Shown here in pieces: positions 20,180 to 62,216 of a stretch of DNA of 64,000 nucleotides (position 1 is its first letter; each line of letters begins with the position of its first letter). A program made the position numbers and the translations under genes. The DNA comes from a bacterium. GTDB taxonomy: Bacteria > BMS3Abin14. The notes under the pieces are model-generated. The model did not search any database. It worked only from the letters and a program-made list of their open reading frames with translations, and had not been told where the DNA came from. The DNA is taken from contig JARGFZ010000007.1 of assembly GCA_029210965.1 (NCBI GenBank), positions 27,052 through 91,051 of the forward strand, read 5' to 3'.

Positions 20180-21336
20180 GCCGGATCCCTGTGGTACACG
20201 TTATAACCAAACTGGAGTTCGGCGGCGCCCAGCAGAACACCCTGTATACAGTAGCTTCTCTGGATCGGGAGCGCTTCGAACCGGTTCTCATGACGGGCCC
20301 CGGTGGTTATCTCATGCCTGAGGCCCTGGACCTGGACCTGGACCTGAGGGTTGTGTCCAACATGGAGCGTGCCCTGAGACCGGGTGTCGATGGGGCGGCC
20401 TACAGGGAATTGGGCAAACTTCTCGAACCCTACCGGGGCCGACCGGCTATCGTTCACACTCACAGCTCCAAGGCGGGCATCCTGGGCCGCTGGGCTGCCC
20501 GTAAGAACCGTGTCCCGGTTATCATCCACTCCATCCACGGGTTCGGTTTCACCCCGGCACAAAGTCCTCCAAAACGATTTCTCTTCCAGACGGCAGAGCG
20601 TCTTACCTCCCGCATCACCGATCATTTTATCGCCGTGTCCGAATCCAACCGTAAAGATGGGGCACGCCTGGGTCTTTTCAGCCCGGAGCGGTGCACCCTT
20701 ATCAGATCGGGTTTCGACCTTGACCGGTTCCTCCGTGCCCAACCGGTCAAGCCCGATCTCCTTCTTGATCTGGGTATCCCTCACGGATCACCCCTCGTTC
20801 TCATGGTTGCCTGTTTAAAGCCCCAGAAGGCTCCCCTCGATTTTGTCAATCTGGCTGCCCTGGTGCATCGTGACTTTCCGGAAGTCAGATTCCTGCTTGC
20901 AGGTGACGGGGAACTGAGAGGAACCCTTCTTGCAGAGGTGGACCGCCTGGGGCTGAAAGGTGTTTTTATAGCTCCGGGATGGCGTGAGGATATTCCCGAG
21001 CTCATGAAGAGCAGCCGCGTCGTTGTCCTTACCTCGAGATGGGAGGGGCTCCCGAGGGTGATACCCCAGGCCAAGGCGGCTGCCCGTCCGGTAGTAGCTG
21101 CCGCCGTTGACGGTTCCGTTGAGGCCATAAGGGAAGGTGTGGACGGGTACCTCTGCCCCCCCGGGGATGTGGACTCCATGGCCCAAAGGGTGATCTGTCT
21201 CCTGAAAGACCAGGGCCTGGCCGATCGCATGGGCCGGGAAGGGAACCGGGTAGTGGACGAATGGGACCAGGACCAGATGGTGAGGAAGCAGGAGGAGCTC
21301 TACGAGCGACTCCTCAGAGAAAAGAACATATGGTGA
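20176..21336 (+). CDS. Family 1 (GT4-type) glycosyltransferase
   Basis: The N-terminus 'PVVHVITKLEFGGAQQ' and the C-terminal block 'VVLTSRWEGLPRVIPQAKAAARPVVAAAVDGSVE' are typical of GT-B retaining glycosyltransferases. Confidence 0.85.
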   Translation: MSRIPVVHVITKLEFGGAQQNTLYTVASLDRERFEPVLMTGPGGYLMPEALDLDLDLRVVSNMERALRPGVDGAAYRELGKLLEPYRGRPAIVHTHSSKAGILGRWAARKNRVPVIIHSIHGFGFTPAQSPPKRFLFQTAERLTSRITDHFIAVSESNRKDGARLGLFSPERCTLIRSGFDLDRFLRAQPVKPDLLLDLGIPHGSPLVLMVACLKPQKAPLDFVNLAALVHRDFPEVRFLLAGDGELRGTLLAEVDRLGLKGVFIAPGWREDIPELMKSSRVVVLTSRWEGLPRVIPQAKAAARPVVAAAVDGSVEAIREGVDGYLCPPGDVDSMAQRVICLLKDQGLADRMGREGNRVVDEWDQDQMVRKQEELYERLLREKNIW

Positions 21337-21446
21337 ACAGTGAATAGTGAAAAGTGAACGGTCAAGACATGTATTGACGAGGAGTTATTAAGATCAGGTT
21401 GTTTTAGATTAACACTCTTCACACTTCACGGTTCACTATTCACAGC
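21333..21446. repeat. Intergenic inverted repeat built from (GTGAAYR)n heptamers
   Basis: The left arm is 'GTGAACAGTGAATAGTGAAAAGTGAACG' and the right arm is 'CTCTTCACACTTCACGGTTCACTATTCACAG', its reverse complement, with a loop of about 55 bp. It lies between the GT1 stop and pilD. Confidence 0.6.
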
Positions 21447-21497
21447 AACTTTGGAGATCTGAAATATGAGATATTATTCTACTAAAGGATCCCGACA

Positions 21498-22325
21498 ATG
21501 AGCATACAGTTCCAGATAGTGATATTCGCCTTCCCATTCGGGGCCATCATGGGCAGTTTCGCCAATGTTCTCATCCACCGGCTGCCCATGAGCCTGTCCA
21601 TTGTATCTCCCGGTTCACGGTGCCCGTCTTGCGGTAGTGGGATCAGGTGGTCCGACAACATCCCCATCCTCAGCTATTTCATCCTGGGAGGGCGCTGCCG
21701 TATCTGCAAGACGACCATCTCACCGAGGTACCCTCTTGTGGAGGCCTTGAGCGGCCTATTGTTCGCGGCCGTGGGCATGAGATTCGGGATCCCGGCGGCA
21801 ACTGTCCCGTTGGCTCTGCTGGAAACTGTCTTGTTGGTTCTGGCGGCAACTGTCCCGCTGGCTCTGTTCGTCTGGGCCCTTGTGGTCATCACTTTCATAG
21901 ATCTTGACCACCGCATCATACCTGACGTCATCTCTGGGCCCGGAACCATACTTGGTCTCGCTTGCAGTTTTCTCCCGGGTTTTCCCCGGCCGATGGATTC
22001 GGTGGCGGGTGTGGGCATAGGGGCCGGGTTCCTTTTCCTCGTCCTTTATGCCTACGAGAAGATCATGGGAGAGGAGGGGATGGGGTTGGGAGATGTCAAG
22101 CTCCTTGCCATGATTGGTGCGTTCCTGGGCTGGCAGGCCCTTCCGGTCACGATACTGGTCTCTTCCTTGTCCGGCAGCGTTGTGGGTGTGGGGTATGCCC
22201 TTGTAAAGGGTGAATCGGTGAGAAAATTCCCGGTTCCCTTCGGCCCCTTTCTGGCCCTCGGGGCCCTTGTTCACCTTTTCTTCGGAGTCCAGCTGATACA
22301 ATGGTATCTGGGAAAACTGTCATAA
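21498..22325 (+). CDS. pilD: Prepilin leader peptidase / N-methyltransferase PilD (peptidase A24)
   Basis: The N-terminal DiS_P_DiS domain has the zinc tetracysteine 'CPSCGSGIRW...CRICK'. The A24 catalytic region is C-terminal. An internal direct duplication encodes 'AATVPLAL' twice. Confidence 0.9.
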   Translation: MSIQFQIVIFAFPFGAIMGSFANVLIHRLPMSLSIVSPGSRCPSCGSGIRWSDNIPILSYFILGGRCRICKTTISPRYPLVEALSGLLFAAVGMRFGIPAATVPLALLETVLLVLAATVPLALFVWALVVITFIDLDHRIIPDVISGPGTILGLACSFLPGFPRPMDSVAGVGIGAGFLFLVLYAYEKIMGEEGMGLGDVKLLAMIGAFLGWQALPVTILVSSLSGSVVGVGYALVKGESVRKFPVPFGPFLALGALVHLFFGVQLIQWYLGKLS

Positions 22326-23965
22326 AAGGCCTGGGTTTCGGGCGCCAGCGCGGACTGAGGTTCGAGATCATGTTCAGCCTCGGACTGATCATGTTCAGCG
22401 GCGTAGTTATTCTGGGGGCCACAGCCCTGAGGGCGGCTGAGAAAACGATCCTCCTTCAAAAACTCGAATCCCTTACCCAGGTCACCCGTGCTGTGCAGCT
22501 GGGACTTTCCGGCTGGTGGAACCAGGAAGGCCCTTCGCGGAATCTGCAGGTGATCCTGAACCAGACCACGGCAGGCCTTGGTATCACCTCTTTCAAGGTC
22601 GCTGACCTGGAAGGCCGCCTTCTAGCGGGGATCCGTGAAAGTGATACCGGTACTACATCGGATCCTTTCCTCATCCGTGCCCTGGAAACGAGATCGATCG
22701 TGGTGCCGGGTCAGATCACAGGAAAGCTTCCGAAATCGGCCAGCGGTTCATGGACTTTTGCCGCTCCGGTGTTCAAGGATGGGGTCATGATGGGTGCCTT
22801 TTTGGTCACCTATCCCCTGGAAAATCTGGGGGTCGTTCTGAAGCTCCACCGTAAGCTCGTTTATACCTTCGCCTTAATAGACGGCCTCATGATCGTCCTG
22901 TTCGGATGGTGGCTTATCGGGAGGGTTGCCATAAATCCCATAATTCGCATCTCCAGAGGGGCTGAGGCTCTGGCGGCAGGAGAATATGACACGAGGGTCC
23001 AGGTTCAGGGGGCCAGGGAGATCGAGGCTCTGGCCGCGGTTTTTAACTCCATGGCAGAGAGGGTTCAGGCAGCGGTCTATAAACAGGACGAGCACCTGGC
23101 TGCCATCGAGCGCACCAACTGGGAGCTCATGTCCACCCAGAGGGAGATGGTCCGGGTGGAAAAGCTTGCCTCCGTGGGGCAGTTGGCGGCCGGGGTGGCC
23201 CATGAGATCGGCAACCCCCTCTCGGCTATTCTGGGTTACGCCTCCATCCTCCTGAGGGAAGAGAAGGATCCCGAGGCCCAGCAGTATCTCGGCTATATTG
23301 AGAAGGAGACGGAGAGGATCCAGAGGATCATCAGCGGTCTTCTTGAGTTCTCCCGTCCCAGGGATTCCCATGTGGAGATCCTGAGTGTTAACGAAATTGT
23401 CAAAAGCACCATCGATCTGGTGACTCCCCAGCAGATCTTCAGGAATATGGTGGTTAAAACGATCCTGTCCGATCAGGATCCTCTGGTCAGCGGAGACAGC
23501 CATCAGCTCCAGCAGATCCTCATCAACATCCTCCTTAACGCGGCCCAGGCCGTGGAAGGGGAGGGTCACCTGGAGGTGCGGACAAGGTCCACGGTGCTCC
23601 AGGCAGGTGAAGGTGCCGTTCCCAGGAGGAGGGCCGCTGATTTCCGGAAGAGGGTCACCGATCCCCTGAACGAAGACTACGTGGCTATGAGACGCTCTTT
23701 CCCCGATGCTCCTCTGCTCAAGGAAGGGGATCGCGCGGTAGCCATTTCGATCAGGGATTCAGGGGGCGGCGTTCCCCCCGAGATCGCAGACAAGATATTC
23801 GATCCGTTTTTCACCACCAAGGGACCGGGTGAGGGCACAGGCCTGGGACTTGCCATCGCCCACGGCATCGTCGAGGCCCACGGGGGACGGCTCTGTCTGG
23901 AGAACCCGGAGGAGGGCGGCGCGATGTTCACGGTGCTGTTGCCGGAGAAAAGCAGTGAACAGTGA
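22301..23965 (+). CDS. Sensor histidine kinase with periplasmic sensor, HAMP, HisKA and HATPase_c domains; second pil-linked two-component system
   Basis: The H-box is 'ASVGQLAAGVAHEIGNPLSAILGYAS' and the G-boxes are 'DSGGGVPPEIADKIFDPFFTTKGPGEGTGLGLAI'. Two TM segments flank a periplasmic domain of about 150 aa. The true start may be the ATG at about 22370 ('MFSLGLIMF'). Confidence 0.85.
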   Translation: MVSGKTVIKGLGFGRQRGLRFEIMFSLGLIMFSGVVILGATALRAAEKTILLQKLESLTQVTRAVQLGLSGWWNQEGPSRNLQVILNQTTAGLGITSFKVADLEGRLLAGIRESDTGTTSDPFLIRALETRSIVVPGQITGKLPKSASGSWTFAAPVFKDGVMMGAFLVTYPLENLGVVLKLHRKLVYTFALIDGLMIVLFGWWLIGRVAINPIIRISRGAEALAAGEYDTRVQVQGAREIEALAAVFNSMAERVQAAVYKQDEHLAAIERTNWELMSTQREMVRVEKLASVGQLAAGVAHEIGNPLSAILGYASILLREEKDPEAQQYLGYIEKETERIQRIISGLLEFSRPRDSHVEILSVNEIVKSTIDLVTPQQIFRNMVVKTILSDQDPLVSGDSHQLQQILINILLNAAQAVEGEGHLEVRTRSTVLQAGEGAVPRRRAADFRKRVTDPLNEDYVAMRRSFPDAPLLKEGDRAVAISIRDSGGGVPPEIADKIFDPFFTTKGPGEGTGLGLAIAHGIVEAHGGRLCLENPEEGGAMFTVLLPEKSSEQ

Positions 23966-24041
23966 ATGGTGAACAGTGAACGGTAACAGCGGAAAAGTTT
24001 TAGTGTTTATTCGGTTCATTTTTCACGATTCACGATTCACC
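23954..24041. repeat. Intergenic (GTGAACR)n inverted repeat
   Basis: The left arm is 'GTGAACAGTGAATGGTGAACAGTGAACGG' and the right arm is 'GGTTCATTTTTCACGATTCACGATTCACC'. Confidence 0.6.
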
Positions 24042-24084
24042 TGTTATTTTGAATTTTGAAACTGAACTCACAGGACGGTGATTT

Positions 24085-25458: not shown

Positions 25459-25460
25459 CA

Positions 25461-25518
25461 GAATGTAGAACGCAGAATGTAGAACGCAGAATAAACGGAT
25501 CACGGTTCACTGTTCACG
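25461..25518. repeat. Tandem 14-mer (GAATGTAGAACGCA)x2 plus a (TTCACNG) palindrome
   Basis: 'GAATGTAGAACGCAGAATGTAGAACGCAGAAT' is followed by 'CACGGTTCACTGTTCACG'. It lies immediately after the response regulator stop. Confidence 0.55.
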
Positions 25519-25603
25519 TAATAGTTATTCGCTTGCTATGAAAAAAGTGCGTCATTAAAGTTTGGCTTGGCGTAAATATCCTTTATTAAAGGTGGGTTAT
25601 CCA

Positions 25604-25619
25604 TGGTACGGCTCTTGCT
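25604..25619 (+). promoter_or_regulatory. Candidate sigma-54 promoter for the minor-pilin operon
   Basis: The sequence is TGGTAC-GGCTC-TTGCT, with GG-N10-GC, and the predicted TSS falls at about 25630, just 5' of the GGAGGA ribosome-binding site. The very short leader makes this tentative. Confidence 0.3.
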
Positions 25620-25641
25620 TTACCAGTGGCATGGAGGAAAC

Positions 25642-26310: not shown

Positions 26311-26369
26311 CGAATTACGAAGATACCAAATCAGGCAAGCATTACCTATTTCACAGGCTGTGCAGGCTG

Positions 26370-26858
26370 ATGGTTAAAGGGTTAACCCCTGGATCCAGAG
26401 ACGGGTTCGGCCTCCTGGAACTGATCATCGCCATGACCATTCTGGCCATCGGCATTCTGGGGATCATGAAACTCCAGATGCAGTCAGGTTTCGGGAACGC
26501 GGCTTCCCGGCAAAACAGCGCTGCTGTGAACCTGGCCCGCTCCAAGATGGAGGAGTTAAAGAGGATCGGTGCCTACTCTGTTCAGGAAGGCGCCATCGTG
26601 GGTTTGAATGATACCGATACCACCAACGATCTGGCTGACTGGTCCACCCCCGATTTCACTGAGGGTCCTTTTAACGAGAGCGCGGATTCCACTTCCGGGG
26701 GAGATCTCTACACCAGGTCATGGAACGTGGTTCACGACTTTCCCATTGCCGGTTTCAAAACGATCCGGATCCGGGTCAGCTGGACCTCCCGGGGTGTGGA
26801 GAAACACGTGGACATGGAGACCCAGATCGGTCTCAAGGATATGGAATATTTCCAGTAG
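26370..26858 (+). CDS. pilV: Minor pilin PilV (prepilin)
   Basis: The start is placed at 'MVKGLTPGSRDG|FGLLELIIAMTILAIGILGIMKLQ', and the protein is about 160 aa like PilV. The upstream extension in the track ORF overlaps the previous gene. Confidence 0.7.
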   Translation: MVKGLTPGSRDGFGLLELIIAMTILAIGILGIMKLQMQSGFGNAASRQNSAAVNLARSKMEELKRIGAYSVQEGAIVGLNDTDTTNDLADWSTPDFTEGPFNESADSTSGGDLYTRSWNVVHDFPIAGFKTIRIRVSWTSRGVEKHVDMETQIGLKDMEYFQ

Positions 26859-26908
26859 GACGGATCAGATCGCTAACTGAGGCTCTCTTGTTGATGGAGG
26901 ATGGAAAG

Positions 26909-40431: not shown

Positions 40432-40501
40432 AAGACCCACAACAGCGACAAACGCATCCGCCGATAGGGGCGGATGCGTTTTTTTTAGGAGGATATGAGA
40501 C

Positions 40502-41659: not shown

Positions 41660-41663
41660 AAAC

Positions 41664-41771
41664 GGTGAACAGTGAACAGTGAACGGTATAATCACAGCTG
41701 CACACATTGTTGATATTATTTTTATCCTTTTCCAATTAATGCAGTTTTTTTTCATAGTTCACTTTTCACAA
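41664..41771. repeat. Intergenic (GTGAACR)n inverted repeat flanking the aroB promoter region
   Basis: 'GGTGAACAGTGAACAGTGAACGG' is followed 60 nt later by 'TCATAGTTCACTTTTCACAAG'. Confidence 0.55.
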
Positions 41772-41842: not shown

Positions 41843-42910
41843 GTGACTGAAACAATACATGTCGGCCTTGGAAACAGATCCTATCCGATCACCATAGGCG
41901 ATAAGGCCTGGTCAGGCCTGCTGCCCCACCTTGAAAAAAATCCTTTTACATCATCTATCACCGTCATCGATGAACGGGTGAACCGACTTTACGGTGAAAG
42001 GTTTTTCGGGCTTACGGACAAGACAGGCAAACCCTCATTCCGTTTTATTCTCCCTGAGGGCGAGCAAAGTAAATCATTCCCCTTTCTGGAATCACTCTGC
42101 AGGGACATGGCAAGGAACGGAATGGATCGCGGGTCCCTGGTATTGGCACTGGGTGGTGGTGTGGTTGGTGATCTGGCAGGTCTTGCCGCCTCCGTATATC
42201 TTCGGGGAGTCCGCCTTATCCAGCTTCCAACAACCCTGCTTTCCATGGTGGACAGCAGTGTTGGTGGAAAAACCGGGATTAACATATCCGAGGGGAAAAA
42301 CCTGATCGGAACCTTTTACCAGCCGGAAGCCGTTTTCGCTGACATATCGGTACTGGGCACTCTTGATGAGCGAGACTGGTATTCGGGCCTGGCAGAGATC
42401 CTGAAAATCGCTTTGGCGTTGGATGCGGGACTATTCGACTACCTGGAATCGGTGGGGGATCTTGGACCTTCCGGAGATCTGGATGTCACCAGGACCGTTG
42501 CTGCCGCGTGCCGGCAGAAGGCGAATGTAGTGGAGCTGGATGAAAAGGAAGCCGGCTTGCGAAAGGCCCTGAATTTTGGCCATACCCTGGGGCATGGTGT
42601 TGAAGCGTCTCTTGGGTATGGAGTTCTCAGACACGGCGAGGCGGTTCTCTTTGGGATGAGGGCAGCTCTCATCCTTTCGACCAGAATGTGTGGTCTCCCC
42701 TCCGATCAGTTTCAAAGGGCCATTAAACTTTTAGACCGGATCCCGGTCCCGGATGTGGAAATTCCCCATGATCTTAACAGGTTCATAATTAAGGACAAAA
42801 AGAGTTCCGGCAACAGAATATCTGGTGTTTTCATTAAGGAGATAGGCAAACACGAATTTGTTTCCCTTGAGGATCCATCTGTGTTGGTGGAGGCGTTGAA
42901 AGTTCCGTGA
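41843..42910 (+). CDS. aroB: 3-dehydroquinate synthase
   Basis: The start is GTG at 41843 ('MTETIHVGLGNRSYPITIG'), and the NAD-binding 'GGGVVGDLAG' is present. The track ORF uses an upstream TTG at 41813. Confidence 0.85.
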   Translation: MTETIHVGLGNRSYPITIGDKAWSGLLPHLEKNPFTSSITVIDERVNRLYGERFFGLTDKTGKPSFRFILPEGEQSKSFPFLESLCRDMARNGMDRGSLVLALGGGVVGDLAGLAASVYLRGVRLIQLPTTLLSMVDSSVGGKTGINISEGKNLIGTFYQPEAVFADISVLGTLDERDWYSGLAEILKIALALDAGLFDYLESVGDLGPSGDLDVTRTVAAACRQKANVVELDEKEAGLRKALNFGHTLGHGVEASLGYGVLRHGEAVLFGMRAALILSTRMCGLPSDQFQRAIKLLDRIPVPDVEIPHDLNRFIIKDKKSSGNRISGVFIKEIGKHEFVSLEDPSVLVEALKVP

Positions 42911-43200
42911 TTCGTGATTTGTGAATCGTGAATGGTTAGGGATGTAATATCGTGACTCGTGATTTGTAGTCGGAGAGATCAGTAATCAGTAATCAGTAAA
43001 TGGGAAGTGGTGGAAGCTGGAAAGCGGTAAGGTCTCGCTGATTCGTTGTTTTTTCGAATTACGAATCACCAATCACGGCCCTTAACCATTTGACTTGAAT
43101 TACTAAATCCCATAGCATTAAGGGATGATTGATTGAGAATTTGAAACGCTTTCATGCTCTTATTCTCAATTCGGAATGCGTAATTCGTAATAGTAATAAT
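42905..43200. repeat. Repeat-rich intergenic block of about 300 bp, with 7-bp periodic (GTGATTC / GTAATCA / CGTAATT) arrays and an embedded palindrome
   Basis: It includes 'GTGATTCGTGATTTGTGAATCGTGAATGG', 'CGTGACTCGTGATTTGTAG', 'CAGTAATCAGTAATCAGTAAATGG', 'CGAATTACGAATCACCAATCACGG' and 'GCGTAATTCGTAATAGTAATAATGCG'. The palindrome is 'TTGAGAAT...ATTCTCAA' at about 43130-43170. Confidence 0.55.
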
Positions 43201-43224: not shown

Positions 43225-44592
43225 ATGAGCGATGATGCTATTGAGCGCTATGAACAGATGCTGTTGGAAGACCCCCAGTCAAGGGCATTTGCTCCCCTGG
43301 CTGAGGCTCACCGCAAAACGGGACGCCTGGATGATGCGATCAATGTAGCCAGAGCAGGGCTTGAGCTGAATCCTGGTTACAGCGGCGGATTAGTCGTACT
43401 TGGCCGGGCCCTCTATGAAAAGGGGGAACTCGACAACGCGATCGAGGTTCTGCTAGAGGCGCTCAAAGACACACCGGAGAATTATCTGGGACAAAAGTTC
43501 CTTGGGAAAGTCCTTTTGGCCAAGGGTGAGAATAAGGGGGCGCTGACAGCTCTCGATGCGGCAAACCTTCTTAGTCCGGAGGATGAAGAGGTGACAAGAC
43601 TCCTTGATGAAGTGAGGAGCAAGGCTGTTACCCCACCGACCATGGACTATAATGAATATGCTGCCGATTCTGCCGAAAAGGCCCGACTCGTCACTTACGA
43701 ACAAAAACCTACAACGATAGACGGGATAGAGCTTTCTCCCCTGCCGGGTGGTGAGATCGAAGAGACGTTCACCTTCTCAGGCGGAGGCACCGCCGATCCG
43801 GCGGATTTGGCCCCTGTCGATGATATCGACGGTGAAGATATGACGGCCACTGTGATCGAGGAGGAAGAGATCGAACAGGCCTCGGACCTTGAATCCCTTG
43901 ACGAACTGGGTGCTGAGGCAGCGGCGTTTATCCGGGAGGGCGAGAGTTTTGTGGAGGAATCCCTGGAGGATCTTCCAGATGAAGCGTTATTTTCAGTGGA
44001 AGAGGAAATGGATGTGGATGTTGAGCCTGAAGAGATTTTTACCCCTTCTGCTGAACCGCCTGTAGCTGCAGCGCAAGAGGCTGCGTTCGTACCAGTATTC
44101 GCGCCTGCGCCCGAACCCGAGCCTGTTCCCGAACCCGCACCTGCGCCCGAACCTTTTCCAACGCCAGTGTCTGTGCCCGCACCCGAACACCAGCATGCGC
44201 CCCAGCCAGTGTTTGAGCCAGCGCCCGTTACCCAGCTTGCACCCGAACCTGAACCGGAAATTCGGGCGGAAATTCCGATACCGCTGGATCCGCCTTCCGG
44301 TGATGATCAGTTTTCCACCGAAACCCTGGCGGAACTTTATGCCCAGCAGGGTCTTATTGAAAAAGCGGCGAATATTTACCGTCGGATCCTGGATCAGGCG
44401 CCGGAAAATGAAGCTGTGAAATTGAAGCTCGAAACCCTGGAGGAGCAAACTCCAGTAATCGTGGGATCCGTTCAGGAGGTTAAGCCCCGTGAAGAGGGCC
44501 AAACCCAGTCCCCTCAGAAGGGTGGTAATGAGGACCCTTTGAGTATGCTGGAGCGGCTTCTTGAAAATGCGGAAAGGATAAAGGGACCATGA
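43225..44592 (+). CDS. TPR protein with a long acidic/Pro-rich linker and a C-terminal TPR-like motif resembling the FimV C-terminal domain
   Basis: There are about four N-terminal TPR repeats. A roughly 200-residue D/E-rich segment follows with (P-E-P/A-P) repeats ('PAPEPEPVPEPAPAPEPFPTPVSVPAPE'). The C-terminal 'TLAELYAQQGLIEKAANIYRRILDQAPENEAVKLKLETL' matches the pattern of the FimV C-terminus ('LDLARAYIDMGDxEGARxILxEVL...'). It has no signal peptide or TM segment. Confidence 0.6.
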   Translation: MSDDAIERYEQMLLEDPQSRAFAPLAEAHRKTGRLDDAINVARAGLELNPGYSGGLVVLGRALYEKGELDNAIEVLLEALKDTPENYLGQKFLGKVLLAKGENKGALTALDAANLLSPEDEEVTRLLDEVRSKAVTPPTMDYNEYAADSAEKARLVTYEQKPTTIDGIELSPLPGGEIEETFTFSGGGTADPADLAPVDDIDGEDMTATVIEEEEIEQASDLESLDELGAEAAAFIREGESFVEESLEDLPDEALFSVEEEMDVDVEPEEIFTPSAEPPVAAAQEAAFVPVFAPAPEPEPVPEPAPAPEPFPTPVSVPAPEHQHAPQPVFEPAPVTQLAPEPEPEIRAEIPIPLDPPSGDDQFSTETLAELYAQQGLIEKAANIYRRILDQAPENEAVKLKLETLEEQTPVIVGSVQEVKPREEGQTQSPQKGGNEDPLSMLERLLENAERIKGP

Positions 44593-45608: not shown

Positions 45609-45616
45609 GAGAGAAT

Positions 45617-47457: not shown

Positions 47458-47477
47458 GCGAAAGTCAGATAGGGAAC

Positions 47478-47545
47478 CATGAATGGTGAACTGCGGAAGT
47501 AGCCGGATGACATGCCGCTCTGAACCGTTCACGGTTTTATTTTTA
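47478..47545 (+). terminator. Repeat-derived hairpin plus T-run after accC
   Basis: The inverted arms are 'CATGAATGGTGAACTGCGG...CCGCTCTGAACCGTTCACGG', with an inner palindrome AACCG-ttca-CGGTT followed by 'TTTTATTTTTAC'. Confidence 0.5.
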
Positions 47546-47616
47546 CATCTTACGGCAAAATGAAGGACGTTCAAAAACATCATTCATTATGATACCATTC
47601 TAGCTTTGTTTAAATA

Positions 47617-50430
47617 ATGTTGAAATATGAACGGGAAAATTCAAACATGGCAGATAAGGCAAAATTATTTAAGATAGCGCAAAAACACCTGTCCAAGGGG
47701 AACCTGGACAAGGCTATCAAAACCTTCCAGCAGTTGGCAGAGGTTGATCCCAACGATCAGCGGCTTATTTTGCGTCTTGCTGAAATTCTGGCCCGAGCCG
47801 GGAGGAAAAAGGAAGCCGTCGAGAACTATGAAAAGGTTGCCGCCGGATACATCAAACAGGATTTCCCTCCCAAGGCAATTGCTGTATACAGGACTATTCT
47901 TCGTCTGGACCCGGAGCTTTTTTCAGCCTACGAAAAACTGGCGGAACTCTATAAAAGCCAGGGGCTAGAGGCTGAGGCCCTGGCTATTTTCGAAAACCTT
48001 TTCAAGGTTTACGAAAGGAAGAACGACGAAGACAAACAGATAGATGTCCTCAAGCTCATGGCCGACATGGATCCCGAGAATCTGGGGTTCCAGGTCAGGT
48101 TGGGAGAGACCCTGGCCAGGAAGGGTCGGAAAAAAGAGGCTGCCGAGGCTTTGGCAAAAGCTGCAGCCACCCTCAGCCGGAGAGGATTCCACGACAGAGC
48201 TTCCCAGCTTTTCGAAAAAATCACCGCCTTGAATCCCGACAACACAGCGGTGCGAAGAGAGCTTTGTGCCCACTACCTCGAGAGCGGGAAGTATAATGAG
48301 GCCCGCACCGAGATCGAAGCAATCCTCGCGATTGAACCAGATGATCCACGGATGGTTCTCCTTTTGGGCCGAATCCTTTTCCAGTTGGGGAAAAGTGGTG
48401 AGGGAGAGGAGAAAATCTCGGAGTCGATCAAGCTTTTCCTGAAAGCCGGTGAGCTTGAATCTGTGATGAGGGAGTTTCTTTTTGTTGCCCAGTCTCATTT
48501 TAACAATGGTGAGGATTACGAGGCAGAGGCTTTTTATCGCCAGATCTTGTCAAATGTGCCAGGAGAGGTGAGGGCAATAAAAGGGCTCGTGTCGGTGGCG
48601 GAAAAGAGGAAAGATCGTGTTGGTCAGATAGACAATCTCCTTCTTCTTGGCCGGACAATGCAGCAGGCTGGAGATCGGGAGGGTGTTATAGATTCCTTCA
48701 GAAGGGTCAATGAGCTTGATCCCCTGAACGAGGAAGCCAAAGCTTATCTTGCTGGTGCTGGTCCTGTTGAACCCCCCGTTGTTCAGTTTGAAGAACAATC
48801 CATTGGTCTGGAAGGTGAGATCCAGGATGCGGATCTCGATGAAATCGAAGAGGTCGAACTTTTTGATGCTGAGGACATGGATCTGGAGGACATCAGTGAG
48901 GATGTCCTCGAAGAAGACATCGATGAAGAGATCCAGCTCATAGATGATGAGGAACCTGACAGGATTGTTCTTGATGCTGACGAGCCTCAGGTTGATTTTG
49001 GCGCAAAAGAGGTGGAGGAGGGGTTTATCCCTGAAATCGTTCTTGAAGATTACAAGGATGATTTCGAAGTGGATATCGGGGATTTTGAAACTGTGATGGA
49101 GGTCTCTGAAGTTGCCGGGGACGTTGCCGGGGAAGAGGCCGGGGGAGAAACAGAACCTGCAGGTTTTGACGAAGTGCAGGCTTCAGAATCTGTCGAACAG
49201 TTATCCGACGAGATGTCGCTTGAAGAGCTCCTCGCTGAAGCGGAAGTCTATGAAAGGTATGGCCTCAAAGAAAAGGTAGCCGAGACTCTGGAGAAAGCAA
49301 GGGTCAGGGCGCCTGGTGACCAGGAGGTACTCTCCAGGATAGCGGCCTTTGATTCGGGTACTAAAGTCCAGGGACTGTGTCCAGTCGCTGGGGATTCGGC
49401 ACAGGAACTGCCTGAAACAGAGGATCCCCATCACGACCCCTTTTCAGAAGAACTCGAAGAGGCCGACTTCTACCATTCTCAGGGACTCGACGATGAGGCT
49501 TCCAAAATTTACAAGTCTATTCTGGAGCGTGACCCTCAGCAAAACAGGGCCTTGCAAGCACTTTCCTCTATCGAGGTGAAGGGCGCACCGGACGAGCCTG
49601 GGGCGGCAGAACCTGTTGATGAAGGGCGCACAACGGCTTTGTCTGTTGACCCCGGTGTGCCGGTAGAAACAGCTCTTGAATCGCGGTTCAATCCGGATAC
49701 CGCTAAAGATGTCAAAAGTAAACTTATAGTAGAAGATTCAACTCCTGAAGGCATGAACGACTTCCTTGATATCGCTGAGGAGCTTCGCATAGAGATTGCT
49801 GAGGAGGATGCTGCGGAAGCCCGGATCGGACCTGCTGACGGGCCGGTCTCATTTGAAGAGATATTCAGCCAGTTCAAGGAAGGAATTAAGGAAACCCTGG
49901 GAGATGAGGAGTACGAAACCCACTACAACCTGGGGATCGCATACAAAGACATGGGCCTTTATGATGATGCCATCCTGGAGTTCGAGTCGGGTACCAGGGA
50001 TCCTGCTCTGGCCCAGGATAGCTTTAGCCTGATGGCTATGTGCTATGTGGAGAAAAGGGATTACGAGTCAGCGATAAACGCCATTGTTCAAGCCATTGAT
50101 ATTTCAAATGGAGGGAGCAAAACGGGGCTTTTCTTCCAACTTGGTGAGGTGAAGGAAAAACAGAACTTGTGGTCGGAGGCTATAAAGGCTTATGAGCAGG
50201 TACAATCCGATGATCCTGCCTTCCAGGGTATAGGTGAAGCTATTGAGCGTGTTAAGGCTTCCCTTTCCCGTGGGGTGATCCAGGATGAGCCTGATGACTT
50301 GTCGGATGGCGGTATGGATAATATGCTTACGGACCTGATACGGGAGGTTGAGGAAATGGCCAAAGAGTCTTCCGGCGAAACAACGGACGAACCGGGTAAA
50401 CCCAAAAAAGACAGGATATCCTATCTATAA
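47617..50430 (+). CDS. Large TPR-repeat protein (937 aa) with a central hyper-acidic region; MshN/FimV-like pilus-biogenesis accessory candidate
   Basis: There are about 10 N-terminal TPR repeats. A roughly 250-aa D/E-rich segment follows ('DADLDEIEEVELFDAEDMDLEDISEDVLEEDIDEE'). The C-terminal TPR units include 'EADFYHSQGLDDEASKIYKSILERDPQQNRAL', the same unit type as in 43225..44592. It lies immediately upstream of an ExeA/MshM-like ATPase. Confidence 0.6.
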   Translation: MLKYERENSNMADKAKLFKIAQKHLSKGNLDKAIKTFQQLAEVDPNDQRLILRLAEILARAGRKKEAVENYEKVAAGYIKQDFPPKAIAVYRTILRLDPELFSAYEKLAELYKSQGLEAEALAIFENLFKVYERKNDEDKQIDVLKLMADMDPENLGFQVRLGETLARKGRKKEAAEALAKAAATLSRRGFHDRASQLFEKITALNPDNTAVRRELCAHYLESGKYNEARTEIEAILAIEPDDPRMVLLLGRILFQLGKSGEGEEKISESIKLFLKAGELESVMREFLFVAQSHFNNGEDYEAEAFYRQILSNVPGEVRAIKGLVSVAEKRKDRVGQIDNLLLLGRTMQQAGDREGVIDSFRRVNELDPLNEEAKAYLAGAGPVEPPVVQFEEQSIGLEGEIQDADLDEIEEVELFDAEDMDLEDISEDVLEEDIDEEIQLIDDEEPDRIVLDADEPQVDFGAKEVEEGFIPEIVLEDYKDDFEVDIGDFETVMEVSEVAGDVAGEEAGGETEPAGFDEVQASESVEQLSDEMSLEELLAEAEVYERYGLKEKVAETLEKARVRAPGDQEVLSRIAAFDSGTKVQGLCPVAGDSAQELPETEDPHHDPFSEELEEADFYHSQGLDDEASKIYKSILERDPQQNRALQALSSIEVKGAPDEPGAAEPVDEGRTTALSVDPGVPVETALESRFNPDTAKDVKSKLIVEDSTPEGMNDFLDIAEELRIEIAEEDAAEARIGPADGPVSFEEIFSQFKEGIKETLGDEEYETHYNLGIAYKDMGLYDDAILEFESGTRDPALAQDSFSLMAMCYVEKRDYESAINAIVQAIDISNGGSKTGLFFQLGEVKEKQNLWSEAIKAYEQVQSDDPAFQGIGEAIERVKASLSRGVIQDEPDDLSDGGMDNMLTDLIREVEEMAKESSGETTDEPGKPKKDRISYL

Positions 50431-50592
50431 AATGCTGCACTTTGAATTCCAGCCAGCATTTTATAGATAGTCATTTCCTGCAATGTTGAAATGACCATGT
50501 CAGGAGAATCCAAATGTTGATACAACCCTTATTTTCTTTCCTGAGGCCTGATCCGGTTGGCTGCCGGTTAAACGGATACGAGGAAATGACCT

Positions 50593-51651: not shown

Positions 51652-51692
51652 CGAGGTCAACTTTCCTGGTGAACCGTGAACAGTAAATTCGT

Positions 51693-51718
51693 GCCGGAGC
51701 TTTGAGCTCCGGTTTTGT
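51693..51718 (+). terminator. Rho-independent terminator after the ExeA-like gene
   Basis: The hairpin 'GCCGGAGC-tttg-AGCTCCGG' is followed by TTTT, and is preceded by 'GGTGAACCGTGAACAG' repeat units. Confidence 0.7.
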
Positions 51719-52031
51719 ATTCAGGACGCAGCACCCAGCACCCAGTAAAAAACCTTCATTTTTGTTAAGCGGCTAAAGCTATTGAATGCAAAGGACGCGG
51801 AGGGACGCAGAGGAAAAGCTGAAATATGGGTAAACAGGGCATTCCCGAAGAGTCGGACTTCACATTCTCAGGTTTTAATGATCCAGAATCTAAAATCCTA
51901 GGTCCAAGTTTTTCGCCGAACCGCCGATACCTGATTTTCATTCTACGTTCTACATTCTGATTTATACGGTTAGCTCTTGACATCTAACTTCTTAAGACCC
52001 TATAATCATTCAAATTTTTCAAGGGGGAGCC

Positions 52032-52247
52032 ATGAGCAAAGCAAGGCAGGACCTGATCAAGCGAATTCTTGAAGAAGATGAGGAGTACAGAGATCTGCAC
52101 GAGAAGCATCTGGCCTTTGAAGAGCAAATACAGGAACTCCAGAAAAGACCCCCGTCTACTGAAATTCACTTTGAAATCGAGGGGTTAAAGAAACAAAAGC
52201 TGCAGGGGAAAGACAAGATGGAAAGGATTCTTACCAAGTATAGCTAG
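52032..52247 (+). CDS. DUF465/YdcH-family small protein
   Basis: The 71-aa 'LIKRILEEDEEYRDLHEKHLAFEEQIQELQKR...EIEGLKKQKLQGKDKMERIL' matches the DUF465 pattern. Confidence 0.55.
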   Translation: MSKARQDLIKRILEEDEEYRDLHEKHLAFEEQIQELQKRPPSTEIHFEIEGLKKQKLQGKDKMERILTKYS

Positions 52248-52351
52248 GATTGCATGCTGGTGGCTTATTCAAGGCGAGGCCATTGGCCTCGTTTTTTTTG
52301 CATCTAATAGAGTATTTATTAAGGATAACCCCCTAAAAAAAGGAAGTTTTT

Positions 52352-54016: not shown

Positions 54017-54129
54017 AATTGATGGACTAGCAAAAACTCCATCACCCCGTTCTGCCATTGGCGGGATCGCCCTCAATAAAACTTGAAGATATTTTTTGCG
54101 AGGTTAACAAGAATTGACGGAGACAGGTT

Positions 54130-55854: not shown

Positions 55855-55891
55855 TACCGGGCTTAAAAGATCTTAAACTGCTGCGAGGTGA

Positions 55892-56371: not shown

Positions 56372-56414
56372 ACCGCCATTTAAAATAGTCGCAGGAATGA
56401 ATTTAGAATTCCAT

Positions 56415-56446
56415 ATTCCACATTCTACATTCTACATTCCGATTTT
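56415..56446. repeat. (CATTCTA)n tandem repeat in the ilvN-ilvC intergenic region
   Basis: 'CCATATTCCACATTCTACATTCTACATTCCG' is related to the GAATGTAGAAC units at 25461 and to 'CATTCTACGTTCTACATTCTG' at about 51936. Confidence 0.5.
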
Positions 56447-56465
56447 TTTGAAAGGAGCAAAACAC

Positions 56466-57485
56466 ATGGACGTACTAACTGAGAAGGATCTGTACTTGAA
56501 AGGTAAGCCTTTGGCTGGAGTGAAGGTGGCGATCATCGGTTACGGCAGTCAGGGTCATGCCCAGGCCCTGAACCTCAAGGAAAGCGGTGTGGATGTGACC
56601 ATCGGTCTCATTGAGGGTGATGCGGGCCGTGAGGCTGCAAAAAAAGCCGGTTTTTCAGTCAAGACTATCGAGGAGGCCAGCGCCGGCGCTGATCTCGTCA
56701 TGATGCTTGTTCCTGATGAGTTCCACAAAGTGGTTTTTGAGGGACAGATCCTTCCCAACATCAAGGATGGTGCGGTACTGGCTGTGTCCCACGGTTTCTC
56801 CATCCATTACGGGCAGGTGGTGCCCCCCAGGACCATGGATGTCATCATGGTCGCTCCTAAAGGCCCTGGGCACCTGGTACGCAGCGAATTCCTCCAGGGA
56901 CGTGGTGTACCTGTCCTTGTGGCTGTCCACCAGGATGTTTCCGGTAAGGCCAGGCAATATGGCATGGAGTACGCTGTAGGAACCGGCGCCGGTCGGGTGG
57001 GCATTCTTGAGACCACCTTCCGTGAGGAGACCGAGACGGACCTGTTCGGTGAGCAGGCGATCCTGTGCGGTGGTGCGGTGAGTCTGGTCGTGGCAGGTTA
57101 CGAGACCCTTGTGAACGCCGGTTACGCTCCCGAGATGGCCTATTTTGAATGCCTTCACGAACTCAAACTCATCGTGGACCTGCTCTACCAGGGCGGCATC
57201 GGTACCATGAACTATTCCGTGAGCAATACCGCAGAGTATGGCGGGTTGACAAGAGGTGACAGAGTCATCGACGAACATGTCCGGGAGGAGATGGAGGAGA
57301 TACTCGCTGAGGTGCAGAGCGGGGAGTTTGCCAGGGAGTGGATCCTGGAGAACCAGGCCGGGAGGCCCGTGTTCAACGCCCTCAGCCGTGAAATGAACGA
57401 TCATCCCATCGAAGAGGTGGGCAAGCGGCTCCGGGCCCTCATGCCGTGGCTCAAGGAAGAATCTGCCGTTAAGGATAAGGAATAA
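56466..57485 (+). CDS. ilvC: Ketol-acid reductoisomerase
   Basis: AAAGGAG lies 6 nt upstream of the ATG at 56466. '[37 protein letters not shown]' is the IlvC N-terminus. The upstream part of the track ORF is intergenic. Confidence 0.9.
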
Positions 57486-57497
57486 GGAACACAGCAC

Positions 57498-58127: not shown

Positions 58128-58207
58128 TGGACTCGTAATAAGTCCATCATTCAGGATCTCGAAGAGACTTTTTACGAAGTTGTTAAACAAGATGAGGGGG
58201 ACTTTAA

Positions 58208-59002: not shown

Positions 59003-59194
59003 GAGGAGGTGGTGGCGCACCATGGGGCTAGGTGAAAGTGACCTTGGAATGAACAGTATCGGTACCGGTAACGGTCGTGGTGGCGCTGCCGTCAGTTAGA
59101 AAGAGGGGCGAACCCTCAACTTTAGACCTTCCCCCCGGCACCGTAATTCAAAAAAACAGTATACCCCGGGTACGGGGAACGGAAGGAGCAACAA

Positions 59195-60742
59195 ATGTCC
59201 GACAGGATAATCATTTTCGATACGACCTTAAGAGATGGCGAACAATCACCCGGAGCTTCCATGAACCTGGAGGAGAAGCTCCAGGTGGCCAGGCAGCTGG
59301 AACGCATGAACGTGGACGTCATAGAGGCGGGGTTCCCCATAGCCTCCGAGGGCGACTTCGAAGCTGTGCGCGCTGTGGCCAGGGCGATGAAGAAGACCGC
59401 CGTGGCAGGTCTGTGCCGGGCCAGCAAAAAGGACATCGACAGGGCCTGGGAGGCGCTCAAGGAGGCGAAAATACCGAGGATCCACACCTTCCTGGCCACT
59501 TCGGACATCCACGTCAAACTCAAGCTCCAGAAGACCCACGACCAGGTGAAACAGATCGCTGTGGATGCCGTTCGTCACGCGGCAGGATATACCGATAACG
59601 TTGAGTTTTCGGCTGAAGACGCGGCGCGAAGCGATGTGTCCTACCTGTGTGAGGTCATTGAGGCTGTTATCGAGGCCGGGGCAAAGACCGTCAACATTCC
59701 GGACACCGTGGGATACGCTATACCCGACGAGTTCGGAAACCTTATCGCCACCATCCGCGACCGGGTTCTCAATGTGGATCAGGCTATCCTTTCCGTTCAC
59801 TGCCACAACGACCTGGGGCTTGCTGTTGCCAACTCCCTGGCAGCCGTCCAGGCAGGAGCCCGACAGGTGGAATGTACTATCAACGGGATCGGAGAACGGG
59901 CCGGTAACGCTTCCCTGGAGGAGACGGTCATGTCTCTCAGGACCCGTCAGGATTATCTGAATGCACACACGGATATTTGCACCGAGGAGATCTACAGGGC
60001 GAGCAGGCTGGTTTCCGGTATTACCGGGATCCTGGTCCAGCAGAACAAGGCCATCGTTGGAGCCAACGCCTTTGCACACGAAGCAGGCATTCACCAGGAC
60101 GGCATGCTCAAGGACAGGACCACCTACGAGATCATGACCCCGGAGTCGGTGGGGATCAAGGAAAGTTCCCTGGTCCTGGGAAAACATTCCGGCCGTCACG
60201 CCTTCAGGAACCGCCTGGATGAGTTGGGCATCGAACTTACTGACGAACAGCTCCAGACAGCCTTCATTGCCTTTAAAAGCCTGGCCGACAAGAAGAAGAC
60301 GATTTACGACGAAGATATCGAGGCCCTCATCGCAGAGGAGATCCTGCGTCTCCCGGACAAGTTCAAACTGATCAGCGCCAACTTTACAAGTGGGACCGGA
60401 GTTGTACCCTCCGCCACCGTTGAGGTGGAGATCGACGGCAAGGTAAAGACAAATGCGGAGTTCGGTGACGGTCCTGTGGATGCCGTTTTCAAGGCCATCA
60501 AGAAGACCTGCAAGAGCAGGGCGAAGCTTTTGAGGTTCACCGTATCAGCCATCACCGGGGGAGCAGACGCCATGGGTGGTGTAACCGTACGTATCAAGGA
60601 GAACGGGTACACCATCATCGGGCAGGGTGCCCATTCGGACATCATCGTGGCCTCTGCGAGGGCCCTGATCAACGCCCTGAACAAACTGGAGTACAGGAAG
60701 AAGACCCAGAAGACAGCGGAGATGGAGAGGCCGAGCTTATAA
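59195..60742 (+). CDS. leuA: 2-isopropylmalate synthase
   Basis: '[18 protein letters not shown]' is present, along with the HxH metal site '[18 protein letters not shown]' and a C-terminal LeuA dimerisation domain. Confidence 0.9.
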
Positions 60743-60744
60743 AC

Positions 60745-60840
60745 AAGTCCAACGCCCAAAGTCCAACGTCCAAAGTAAACATTAGGACTCAGGTGGTACC
60801 TGTTTAAACCCGTTGGACATTGGACACGGGACATTGGACC
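60745..60840. repeat. Intergenic inverted repeat built from (GTCCAAYG) octamers, between leuA and leuC
   Basis: The left arm 'AAGTCCAACGCCCAAAGTCCAACGTCCAAAGT' and the right arm 'CCGTTGGACATTGGACACGGGACATTGGACC' are reverse-complementary. Confidence 0.6.
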
Positions 60841-60853
60841 GGAGGCAGAGAAT

Positions 60854-62113
60854 ATGCCCATGACCATTACACAAAAGATCCTTGCGGCCCATTGCGGCCG
60901 GGATGAAGTGCACCCGGGGGAGATCATCATGGCGGATATCGACCTTGCTCTGGGTAACGATATTACCGCCCCCATTTCCATCAAGATCCTAAGGGAAAAG
61001 GGGATCAAGAAGGTGTTTGATCGTGACAGGGTCGCCCTGGTGCCTGACCACTTTGCTCCCAACAAGGACATTGCTTCAGCCCAGCAGTGCAAGGACCTCA
61101 GGGAGTTCGCCCGGGATTTCGATATAACGCACTACTTTGAACTGGGTGAAATGGGTGTGGAACATGCCCTCCTCCCCGAAAAGGGTCTGGCCCTTCCGGG
61201 CGAGCTCATCATTGGAGCGGACAGTCATACCTGCACCTATGGTGCCCTTGGCGCGTTTTCCATGGGTATGGGAAGTACCGATCTGGCTGGCGCCTTGATC
61301 AGTGGAAAGGCGTGGTTCAAGGTTCCCGGCGCGATCAAGTTCGTCATCGATGGGAAACTGAAGCCCTGGGTGGGTGGTAAGGACCTCATTCTCTACATCA
61401 TAGGAAAGATCGGGGTCGACGGCGCTCTTTATCAGTCCATGGAGTTTACGGGAGAAACGGTTCGCGCTCTTCATATGTCCGACCGCTTGACAATGTGCAA
61501 CATGGCCATAGAGGCCGGTGCCAAGAACGGCATCATCGAGCCTGACGAGATCACCGAAGAGTACGTCAGGGAACGGACATCCAGACAATGGAAGAACTAC
61601 AGCAGCGATGCCGATGCCGAGTACCTGGATGAGATCCGGATAAACGCTTCGGATGTGGATCTGCAGGTGGCTTTCCCTCACCTCCCTGAAAACTCCAGGC
61701 CGGTGGGTGAGGCCAGGAATGTGGCCATCGATCAGGTCGTCATCGGATCGTGCACCAACGGTCGCCTGGAGGACTTTCAGGCGGCAGCAAGGGTCCTCAA
61801 GGGAAGAAAAGTCGCCCCGGGTGTTCGGCTGATCATGATCCCGGCCACACCCCTTATCTATCGCCAGACCATGGAGGAAGGACTCTTCGACATCTTCCTG
61901 TCTGCGGGAGCAGTCATTAGCCCTCCCACATGCGGTCCGTGCCTGGGTGGACACATGGGAATCCTCGCAGAGGGAGAAGTCGCTGTGGCAACGACGAACA
62001 GGAACTTCGTGGGCCGCATGGGTCACCCCAAGAGCGAGGTGTATCTGGCCGGGGCGCCGGTGGCAGCGGCGTCGGCGGTCGCGGGGACCATAAGTTCCCC
62101 GGAAGATCTATAA
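60854..62113 (+). CDS. leuC: 3-isopropylmalate dehydratase large subunit (419-aa type)
   Basis: It begins '[13 protein letters not shown]', and the aconitase-family Cys ligands are in the 'GSCTNGR' and 'CGPCLG' contexts. Confidence 0.9.
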
Positions 62114-62216
62114 AACAAGAATGGTGAAGGAAGAAGGAAGAAGAAAGACATAAAATAGGCACAGATAAAGTGCTTTTTCTTCCTCCTCCATCCTTCCCTA
62201 TTCCTCCTTCTTAAAT
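62114..62216. repeat. Purine-rich / pyrimidine-rich inverted repeat between leuC and leuD
   Basis: 'GGTGAAGGAAGAAGGAAGAAGAAAGACA' is followed by 'CTTTTTCTTCCTCCTCCATCCTTCCCTATTCCTCCTTCTT', forming a long imperfect hairpin. Confidence 0.55.

Follow-up and report, generated by a model that had tools for sequence, protein, structure and literature searches.

Introduction

For decades, tandem arrays of heptanucleotides have been reported from cyanobacteria, Xanthomonas, Beggiatoaceae and Geobacter, but there is no agreed account of what they do or how they arise. Heptameric repeats are over-represented in bacterial intergenic DNA, and slippage tied to the polymerase footprint has been proposed to generate them (PMC4692102); the short tandemly repeated repetitive (STRR) heptamers of heterocystous cyanobacteria and a general heptamer excess had been described before (Mazel 1990 and Mrazek 2007, as cited in PMC4692102). 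In this work, such arrays were analyzed in a stretch of 64,000 nucleotides of bacterial DNA (assembly GCA_029210965.1, contig JARGFZ010000007.1, positions 27,052 to 91,051), which is referred to as the window throughout. The arrays lie in intergenic spacers, and many of them are mirrored, i.e. an array at the stop codon of the upstream gene is followed by its reverse complement, with which it can form a hairpin. They belong to a known, unexplained class of intergenic heptamer repeats, present here in mirrored hairpin form, and do not constitute a new kind of element.

With the STRR sequences they share tandem 7-nt units in at least three copies, the intergenic position, the occurrence at many loci with several units per genome and a proposed origin by slippage. 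However, the host is a non-cyanobacterial metagenome-assembled genome, and because it is not a heterocystous cyanobacterium, the arrays are assigned to the broader heptamer-repeat kind rather than to STRR in the strict sense. Furthermore, the inverted pair that starts from a stop codon, which is the dominant form here, is not described as a rule for STRR in the account given in PMC4692102. The closest match in layout comes from Geobacter metallireducens, whose genome contains 24, 21 and 8 pairs of tandem 7-9-mer sites on opposite strands, described as putative global regulator binding sites of classes 1-3 and guessed to bind IHF/HU (PMC2700814). These sites likewise consist of 3-5 tandem 7-9-mers (GTTGCTYN, TCTCCGTS[Y], MTYCTGA), are paired at variable distance, lie between genes, also within operons (proB/proA), and are absent from the sister species (PMC2700814), which we count as a further likeness. 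They differ in that a few unit classes occur 8-24 times each, whereas here nearly every spacer has its own unit, and the IHF/HU reading was a guess without comparative or population evidence in that study.

Arrays of the GGGAATC type in Xanthomonas and Nostoc differ in length from one sister species to the next and are in some cases arranged as inverted pairs (PMC4692102). These GGGAATC and GGGGA(T/C)T repeats are also intergenic heptamer arrays; they are G-rich and G-quadruplex-capable, whereas the units described here are mostly not G-rich and have arm pairing as their common theme. TAACTGA arrays are found in Beggiatoaceae, Cyanobacteria and Bacteroidetes, and cold-shock proteins bind to them with one protein per heptamer (PMC4679880). 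They share with the arrays of the window the heptamer, the intergenic position and the patchy distribution across phyla; in contrast, they consist of a single unit, are nearly always direct (1 inverted case in 170 sets) and end 1 to a few nt before start codons, whereas here many units, mostly starting at stop codons, occur in mirrored form. The repetitive extragenic palindromic (REP) sequences of E. coli and their composite elements (BIME) are likewise intergenic imperfect palindromes after stop codons, lack a U-tract and occur within operons, and serve as a functional analogue for the role proposed below. However, the REPs of a genome have a single conserved sequence in common and are moved by RAYT transposases, and their arms are not tandem oligomers, whereas the units here vary from spacer to spacer. 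The REP hairpins of E. coli stabilise the upstream mRNA. Reportedly (Liang, Rudd and Deutscher, 2015), a REP lowers translation when it lies within ~15 nt of the stop codon.

Heptamer arrays and hairpins in the window

The heptamer arrays of the window are real and non-random. All arrays that an initial annotation of this DNA had listed in the spacers are present at or near the positions given there, as judged by direct reading and by Tandem Repeats Finder, which returns 20 period-7 rows. With our own run detector, 12 of 14 period-7 runs fall into the non-coding 6.2% of the window. In this non-coding DNA (~4 kb), 11 period-7 runs were observed, as compared to a mean of 0.095 and a maximum of 1 in 200 dinucleotide shuffles; periods 5, 6, 8, 9 and 11 gave no run there, and period 10 gave one. 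Depending on the count, the window contains 8-14 runs of period 7 versus 0-7 for periods 4, 5, 6, 8, 9, 10 and 11. At least 12 spacers carry arrays, with more than 10 different units; GTGAACR recurs at 5-6 sites, and every other unit is found at a single site.

The initial annotation had counted at least nine hairpin regions. The arrays are there, but clear two-arm hairpins were found in only seven spacers, with RNAfold energies of -23 to -57 kcal/mol and z-scores from -1.5 to -5.6:

H1, 21333-21446, spacer between a glycosyltransferase gene and pilD; GTGAACAGTGAATAGTGAAAAGTGAACGG ... CTCTTCACACTTCACGGTTCACTATTCACAG; 5' arm GTGAAC(A/T/G) x4 (21333-21362), 3' arm TTCACNN x4 (21416-21446); inverted repeat of 28 nt, 82% complementary; TGA stop of the upstream gene (21334-21336) within the first unit; energy -35.3, z -3.5.
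H2, 23953-24041, spacer between a histidine kinase and a sigma-54 response regulator gene; 5' arm GTGAACR x5 over the stop codon 23963-23965 (TGA), 3' arm TTCA(T/C)NN x4, then T-rich DNA; energy -34.4, z -5.6.
H4, 41661-41771, aroC/aroB spacer; 5' arm GTGAACA x3.4, weak and degenerate 3' arm TTCATAGTTCACTTTTCAC; energy -25.3, z -1.5.
H5, 42905-43191, composite region in the spacer between aroB and a TPR gene; arm A GTGATTC x4 (42905-42933) with the TGA stop 42908-42910 in its first unit; inner arrays, including GTAATCA x3 (42978-42999); arm B CGAATTACGAATCACCAATCACGG (43052-43083); arm C AATTCGN x3 (43168-43191); energy -57.3.
H6, 47478-47537, short hairpin 3' of accC, before a TPR gene; ATGAATGGTGAAC pairs with GAACCGTTCACGG, followed by TTTTATTTTT; the sole member that also matches the terminator pattern (47522-47537).
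H8, 60745-60840, leuA/leuC spacer; AGTCCAACGCCCAAAGTCCAACGTCCAAAG ... GTTGGACATTGGACACGGGACATTGGAC; 5' arm NGTCCAA x4, 3' arm TTGGACN x4, ending at the leuC ribosome-binding site; energy -34.7.
H9, 62123-62212, leuC/leuD spacer; GAAGGAAGAAGGAAGAAGAAAGA ... TCTTCCTCCTCCATCCTTCC; 5' arm GAAGGAA x3.3, 3' arm of TTCCTCC-type units; energy -32.8, z -4.1.

The arms at 21333, 42905-43191 (with two pairings), 60745 and 62123 were recovered by an independent inverted-repeat search. At 60745, the unit had been taken for the octamer GTCCAAYG; it is the heptamer NGTCCAA. In the common anatomy, a 7-nt unit is repeated 3-5 times in tandem, beginning at the stop codon of the upstream gene or a few bases from it, and a reverse-complement array comes 20-130 nt later. 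The resulting stem of 20-30 bp is frequently broken once per unit and can be folded on either DNA strand or in the mRNA. In H5, both 42900-42928 and 43169-43190 can pair with the segment 43052-43083; these pairings are mutually exclusive, in the manner of an attenuator, and lie upstream of the TPR gene at 43225. An Rfam scan at gathering thresholds and a tRNA scan of the window gave no matches. CRISPR arrays were dismissed on inspection, given the absence of constant-length spacers and of long repeats.

The same spacers in related genomes

The LeuC of the window is 100% identical to a protein of a metagenome-assembled genome. Contigs of relatives (among them L001, L002, L123-L128 and L209-L212) were found via LeuC homologues of 83-98% identity. 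The leuA-leuC hairpin is present in every readable relative except L002; the contig of L210 holds only the 3' part of the spacer. The units differ between genomes:

window and L123: 5' arm GTCCAAN, 3' arm TTGGACN
L125-L128: 5' arm ATCCAAN, 3' arm TTGGATN
L209, L211 and L212: 5' arm TTCCANN, 3' arm TGGAAN
L001: 5' arm GATCTCR, 3' arm TGAGATC

The base that precedes the TCCA core pairs with the one that follows TGGA, as G:C in the window and L123, as A:T in L125, and as T:A in L209, L211 and L212, and within each genome this pair is identical in all four units of both arms. The arms therefore evolve in a concerted, compensatory manner: since a change is spread over all units of both arms, complementarity is kept. 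In an alignment of five sequences anchored by hand on the TCCA/TGGA cores, and hence fitted to the structure, 84.3% of the cells are paired and 8 pairs are changed on both sides; the covariation score is 0.293 versus 0.147 in shuffles (0 of 500 reach 0.293), and registers slid against each other give at most 53% pairing. This version supersedes an automatic MAFFT/RNAalifold alignment, which had the 3' arms out of register and showed little covariation. Pairing of a 5' arm with the 3' arm of its own genome is stronger than with that of another genome, with means of -31.9 versus -20.6 kcal/mol for leuA-leuC and -35.6 versus -23.9 kcal/mol for leuC-leuD.

In the leuC-leuD spacer, the units found (GAAGGAA, GAATAGG, CCAGTAG, GCGAAGN and GGGCGAA) are unrelated to each other and do not track LeuC identity; L001 lacks a hairpin in this spacer. 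The 3' arm of this hairpin, CTTC(A/C)TCCTCCATCCTTCCCTATTCCTCCTTC (window 62177-62212), is identical in L210, L125 and L126 and one base off in the window. It is near-invariant at 89-100% LeuC identity, whereas the 5' arm is variable, with units gained or lost. CCTCC within the 3' arm is anti-Shine-Dalgarno-like, and the 5' arm GGAGGAAGGAAG is Shine-Dalgarno-like.

The contigs L125 and L126 have an identity of 99.75-99.9% over 9 kb, yet the leuC-leuD hairpin of one has exactly one 7-nt unit more than that of the other. Such 7-nt steps between near-identical strains demonstrate slipped-strand mispairing. The slippage-driven repeat system suggested in the initial annotation is thus borne out by a unit indel between 99.8%-identical contigs and by the turnover of units among relatives. 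In the same pair of contigs, the apgM-lysC spacer is fully replaced: where one contig has nested GTATCGG/GTAATGG hairpins, a GACGCGG/CCGTGTC hairpin is found in the second. The exchanged segment reaches into the upstream gene and covers its final 19 nt (FVRGEI vs FLRKEI), and the flanks are near-identical. As the swapped segment includes a diverged but homologous gene end, it points to a short homologous recombination tract, and whole spacer alleles are exchanged in this way; de novo replacement or mobility was considered for this spacer and dropped because the upstream gene end is also swapped for a homologous variant. In L125 (7310-7518), an inner GTAATGG/CCATTAC hairpin lies inside the loop of an outer hairpin of the GTATCGG/CCGATAC type.

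Runs of N, i.e. scaffold gaps, lie in or beside heptamer hairpins in L124 (8199-8300 and ~2560-2630) and L002 (~10640-10740), so assemblers seem to break at these hairpins. In practical terms, heptamer hairpins break metagenome scaffolds, and terminator predictors may mis-call them.

Heptamer arrays in other bacteria

A scan of 185,579 species genomes for GTGAACRGTGAACRGTGAAC, i.e. (GTGAACR)3, returned at least 120 matches, as compared to ~4 expected by chance according to our own estimate. What follows on the distribution refers to the matches listed. They come from more than 10 phyla, many in mirrored layout, and include Gemmatimonadales, many Cyanobacteria (with Anabaena, Calothrix, Scytonema, Rivularia and Brasilonema as GTGAACR carriers), Bacteroidota/Saprospiraceae, Cloacimonadota, Acidobacteriota, delta- and betaproteobacterial genomes and others. 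When the scan loci are pooled with the window, L001 and L002, period 7 gives 346 runs; multiples of 7 aside, no other period gives more than 29. Of the 346 runs, 133 have an inverted 14-mer partner no more than 300 nt away. The units in this set are very diverse, and TAACTGA arrays co-occur with GTGAAC arrays. Across phyla, 32 hairpins lie between co-directional, 9 between convergent and 6 between divergent genes, with the near arm 0-30 nt from the upstream stop codon.

Loci around unrelated LeuC genes (61-68% identity), taken from the matches listed by a metagenome scan, were used as an unbiased control set. In these 756 kb, period 7 is still the commonest, and at several of the loci a heptamer hairpin lies directly 3' of leuC. 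The density amounts to 3.3 period-7 runs per 100 kb at the unrelated LeuC loci, 12.5 in the window and 24.9 in close relatives. The heptamer family is hence not confined to the window, and the same layout occurs across many phyla.

The order of the arms is not arbitrary in the mirrored hairpins of the window and of L001-L213. As a hairpin is a palindrome, both strands present the same 5' arm. Of 20 scan matches, 18 have GTGAAC and not GTTCAC as their 5' arm (p = 4e-4); with the window added, the count is 22 of 23. With other units, the purine-richer arm leads in 37 of 47 cases, i.e. 37 versus 10 (p about 1e-4). The 5' arm often carries a stop codon, but the reading "stop codons in the 5' arm" was dropped: units free of stop codons show the bias as well (16 vs 5), so that purine richness is the better description.

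Proposed origin and function of the hairpins

Taking the comparative results together, we lean towards regarding these elements as heptanucleotide simple-sequence-repeat palindromes, i.e. STRR-like hairpins, that are made by slippage, have arms kept complementary and probably form stem-loops in the mRNA. The arms would be kept complementary by intrastrand template switching in replication (quasi-palindrome correction), by selection on the stem, or by a combination of the two. Hairpins can arise and be maintained through template switching during replication, which can also yield compensatory changes in one step (PMC8794818). As mRNA structures, the hairpins would most likely act as stem-loops without a U-tract just behind stop codons, or they may act as insulators. 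Like the REP hairpins of E. coli, they would set or shield the 3' ends of mRNAs and give adjacent cistrons partial insulation, and slippage would make the length of their stem tunable. According to PMC13613805 (citing Dar & Sorek 2018), stem-loops without a U-tract mark the steady-state 3' ends of Rho-dependent transcripts. We infer that the hairpins are neither canonical intrinsic terminators nor sites of one sequence-specific protein.

Several observations weigh against this reading. Among 45 hairpins between co-directional genes, no transcript-strand signature was detected: the more stable fold is that of the sense strand in 21 cases and that of the antisense strand in 24, and G-U pairs number 161 versus 142 (Wilcoxon p = 0.84). 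Thus, selection at the RNA level is not demonstrated, and maintenance at the DNA level alone could account for the complementarity of the arms. Because the arrays in 5 or 6 spacers of the window have no partner, the hairpin is not obligatory. The covariation result comes from the hand-anchored alignment of only five sequences, and the purine-rich 5' arm and pyrimidine-rich 3' arm are not accounted for by a stem-loop model.

The main rival is a neutral, self-maintaining by-product: slippage would make the arrays, template switching would make and repair the inverted copy, and the result would be harmless in spacers and without function. This is a tentative possibility, to which we give clearly less credence than to the stem-loop reading. 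It is in line with the published slippage hypothesis (PMC4692102), the lack of sense/antisense asymmetry in stability and G-U pairs, the orphan arrays in the window, the extreme turnover of sequence including presence/absence differences among relatives (leuA-leuC in L002, leuC-leuD in L001) and the layout in many unrelated phyla with unrelated units. However, at LeuC identities between 100% and 85%, the same spacer still carries a hairpin, with changes that compensate each other; its placement is tightly constrained and begins at the stop codon, the purine-rich arm strongly tends to come first (37 vs 10, p about 1e-4), and the leuC-leuD 3' arm is invariant across strains of 89-100% LeuC identity.

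A more far-reaching proposal, which we consider unlikely, makes the post-stop heptamer hairpins a general, slippage-tunable intercistronic control element across many phyla. Gain or loss of a 7-nt unit would change the stem length, and in housekeeping operons this would adjust the stability of mRNA 3' ends, read-through or the coupling of translation. A periodic, sequence-tolerant partner (OB-fold, cold-shock or S1-type binder, or a helicase) or the avoidance of Rho loading may be involved; either would account for a period fixed at 7 nt and for the leading position of the purine-rich arm. If true, this would give a function to the STRR and heptamer repeats, which have been unexplained since 1990. 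The lineage studied here shows the mirrored form unusually clearly, with persistence in the same spacer over more than 10% protein divergence, concerted arms, 7-nt steps and a polarity that holds across phyla. It offers a comparative series clean enough for testing how hairpins are built and kept up by template switching and slippage, and whether they tune operons.

The initial annotation had read the hairpins as Rho-independent terminators or attenuators after the upstream gene. In this form the claim is not supported, and we regard the explanation as improbable. Such terminators share with the hairpins the position 3' of a stop codon; T-rich DNA lies behind the 23953 hairpin and behind the 56408 array, a T-run is present in the 47478 hairpin, and the alternative pairings A:B or B:C of 42905-43191 are attenuator-like. 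The hairpins may have an attenuator or insulator role. However, canonical intrinsic terminators have a GC-rich stem of 5-15 bp, a loop of 3-8 nt and a U-tract, a combination found here only at 47522-47537, where a T-run follows a short GC-containing inner stem of the 47478 hairpin. Most of the others have no U-tract, loops of 20-130 nt and long, AT-rich, interrupted stems. The terminator scan picked only 47522-47537 among the hairpins, yet it found strong canonical terminators as separate features of the window (5113-5146, 40450-40481, 51693-51713 and 52271-52295), one of them after the GTGAAC array at 51664. Furthermore, several of these elements separate genes that keep their neighbours and orientation in relatives or that are part of one pathway, as in leuA/leuC/leuD, aroC/aroB and ilvN/ilvC.

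Binding-site arrays for a repeat-recognising protein, either IHF/HU-like DNA benders or OB-fold RNA binders of the cold-shock or S1 type that each cover ~7 nt, would agree with the strict 7-nt periodicity, and some arrays adjoin promoters or ribosome-binding sites (51936-51958 before the promoter at 51977; 56408). Global-regulator sites were proposed for the same layout in G. metallireducens (PMC2700814), and CspB binds with one protein per heptamer and weak specificity (PMC4679880). Nevertheless, we consider this very unlikely. A sequence-specific recogniser, or a REP-type transposase, as the initial annotation had envisaged, is hard to reconcile with the data, because there are more than 10 unrelated units in one 64-kb window and because the unit changes at an orthologous site while only the complementarity of the arms is kept; within the window, no candidate gene is linked to the arrays.

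Miniature mobile elements of the REP/RAYT or MITE-like type inserting into spacers can be dismissed almost entirely: although GTGAACR arrays occur at 5-6 loci of the window and one spacer allele is wholly replaced between near-identical strains, no shared element sequence, boundary, termini or target-site duplication was seen. The combination that defines MITEs, namely terminal inverted repeats with a target-site duplication and identical copies at unrelated sites, is not present, the unit differs from locus to locus, and at orthologous positions the hairpins change in place. A diverged but homologous gene end (FVRGEI vs FLRKEI) forms part of the replaced allele, indicative of homologous recombination and not of insertion, and no transposase gene, including RAYT (Y1), is found among the window genes.

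Other arrays, genes and features of the window

Besides the hairpins, the following arrays were found on the + strand:

8838-8870, +, AGTTTCA/GGTTTCA (GTTTCAN) x4.7, no partner, directly after the stop codon of the gene 6962-8839.
25459-25518, +, two adjoining arrays, CAGAATGTAGAACG x2.4 (25459-25492) and ACGGTTC/TTCACNG x3.4 (25495-25518); no hairpin, energy -12, z +0.2.
34282-34312, +, CAGTAGC-type x4.4, directly after the stop codon of the pilX-like gene; a canonical-looking GC hairpin with a T-run follows at ~34352-34385.
51664-51690, +, GTGAACC GTGAACA GTAAAT, no inverted partner, directly followed by the canonical terminator 51693-51713.
51729-51745, +, mini-array CAGCACC x2.4, no convincing partner.
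51936-51958, +, CATTCTA/CGTTCTA, no convincing partner, just upstream of the sigma-70-like promoter 51977-52006; its unit is the reverse complement of that at 25459.
56408-56440, +, ATTCCAC/CATTCTA x4.7, ilvN/ilvC spacer, T7 run after it; weak fold, energy -12.7.
57470-57489, +, TAAGGAA x3, covering the ilvC stop codon and the psd ribosome-binding site.

The arrays at 8838-8870, 34282-34312 and 57470-57489 are additional to those annotated initially, and the mini-array at 51729-51745 had been given as GCACCCA x2 at about 51741-51760, an offset of ~12 nt.

Nearly all genes of the window lie on the + strand. Based on Pfam matches, the order is pilC-pilS-pilR-pilin and glycosyltransferases, H1, pilD and the histidine kinase, H2, the sigma-54 regulator, arrays, pseudopilins, a 1948-aa pilin-like protein and a pilX-like gene, an array with a terminator, an HTH gene and pilMNOPQ, a terminator, aroC, H4, aroB, H5, a TPR gene and efp-accB-accC, H6, a TPR gene and an AAA gene, an array with a terminator, a promoter with a DUF465 gene, a terminator, ilvD-ilvB-ilvN, an array, ilvC-psd-pssA-leuA, H8, leuC, H9 and leuD-leuB. 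We take this order to be Geobacter-like. Photosynthesis genes are absent from the genes of the window, which include pil, ilv/leu, aro and acc genes.

The segment 51977-52295 looks like a compact stand-alone transcription unit, with a 12/12 sigma-70 consensus promoter (TTGACA, 18 nt spacer, TATAAT), a 71-aa DUF465 gene (52032-52247) and a strong terminator (52271-52295). In the segment 34492-34823, an 11/12 promoter match (34492-34520) is followed by the direct repeat AAACTTAGCA x2.3 (34537-34559) and an 81-aa Cro/C1-type HTH gene just upstream of pilM, in an operator-like layout.

Further repeats of the window are of other kinds. At 50421-50470, the perfect 17-nt inverted repeat CTATCTATAAAATGCTG / CAGCATTTTATAGATAG, with its arms 16 nt apart, lies across the point where the 937-aa TPR gene ends (stop codon at 50430); heptamers do not make up this repeat, and no T-run accompanies it. 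A 26-nt inverted repeat (8869-8894 / 9000-9025; 81% complementary, 105 nt apart) spans the start of the open reading frame 8903-9415, which has no Pfam match. Within the TPR gene 43225-44592, in-frame 18-nt and 42-nt tandem repeats (CCTGCGCCCGAACCCGAA and similar) at 44104-44244 probably encode a Pro/Glu/Ala-rich linker and are unrelated to the heptamer arrays. Finally, the 1948-aa protein encoded at 26720-32566 in the type IV pilus cluster combines an N-terminal pilin methylation motif with Ig-like domains and is, by these features, a candidate for a giant pilin-like protein or tip adhesin.

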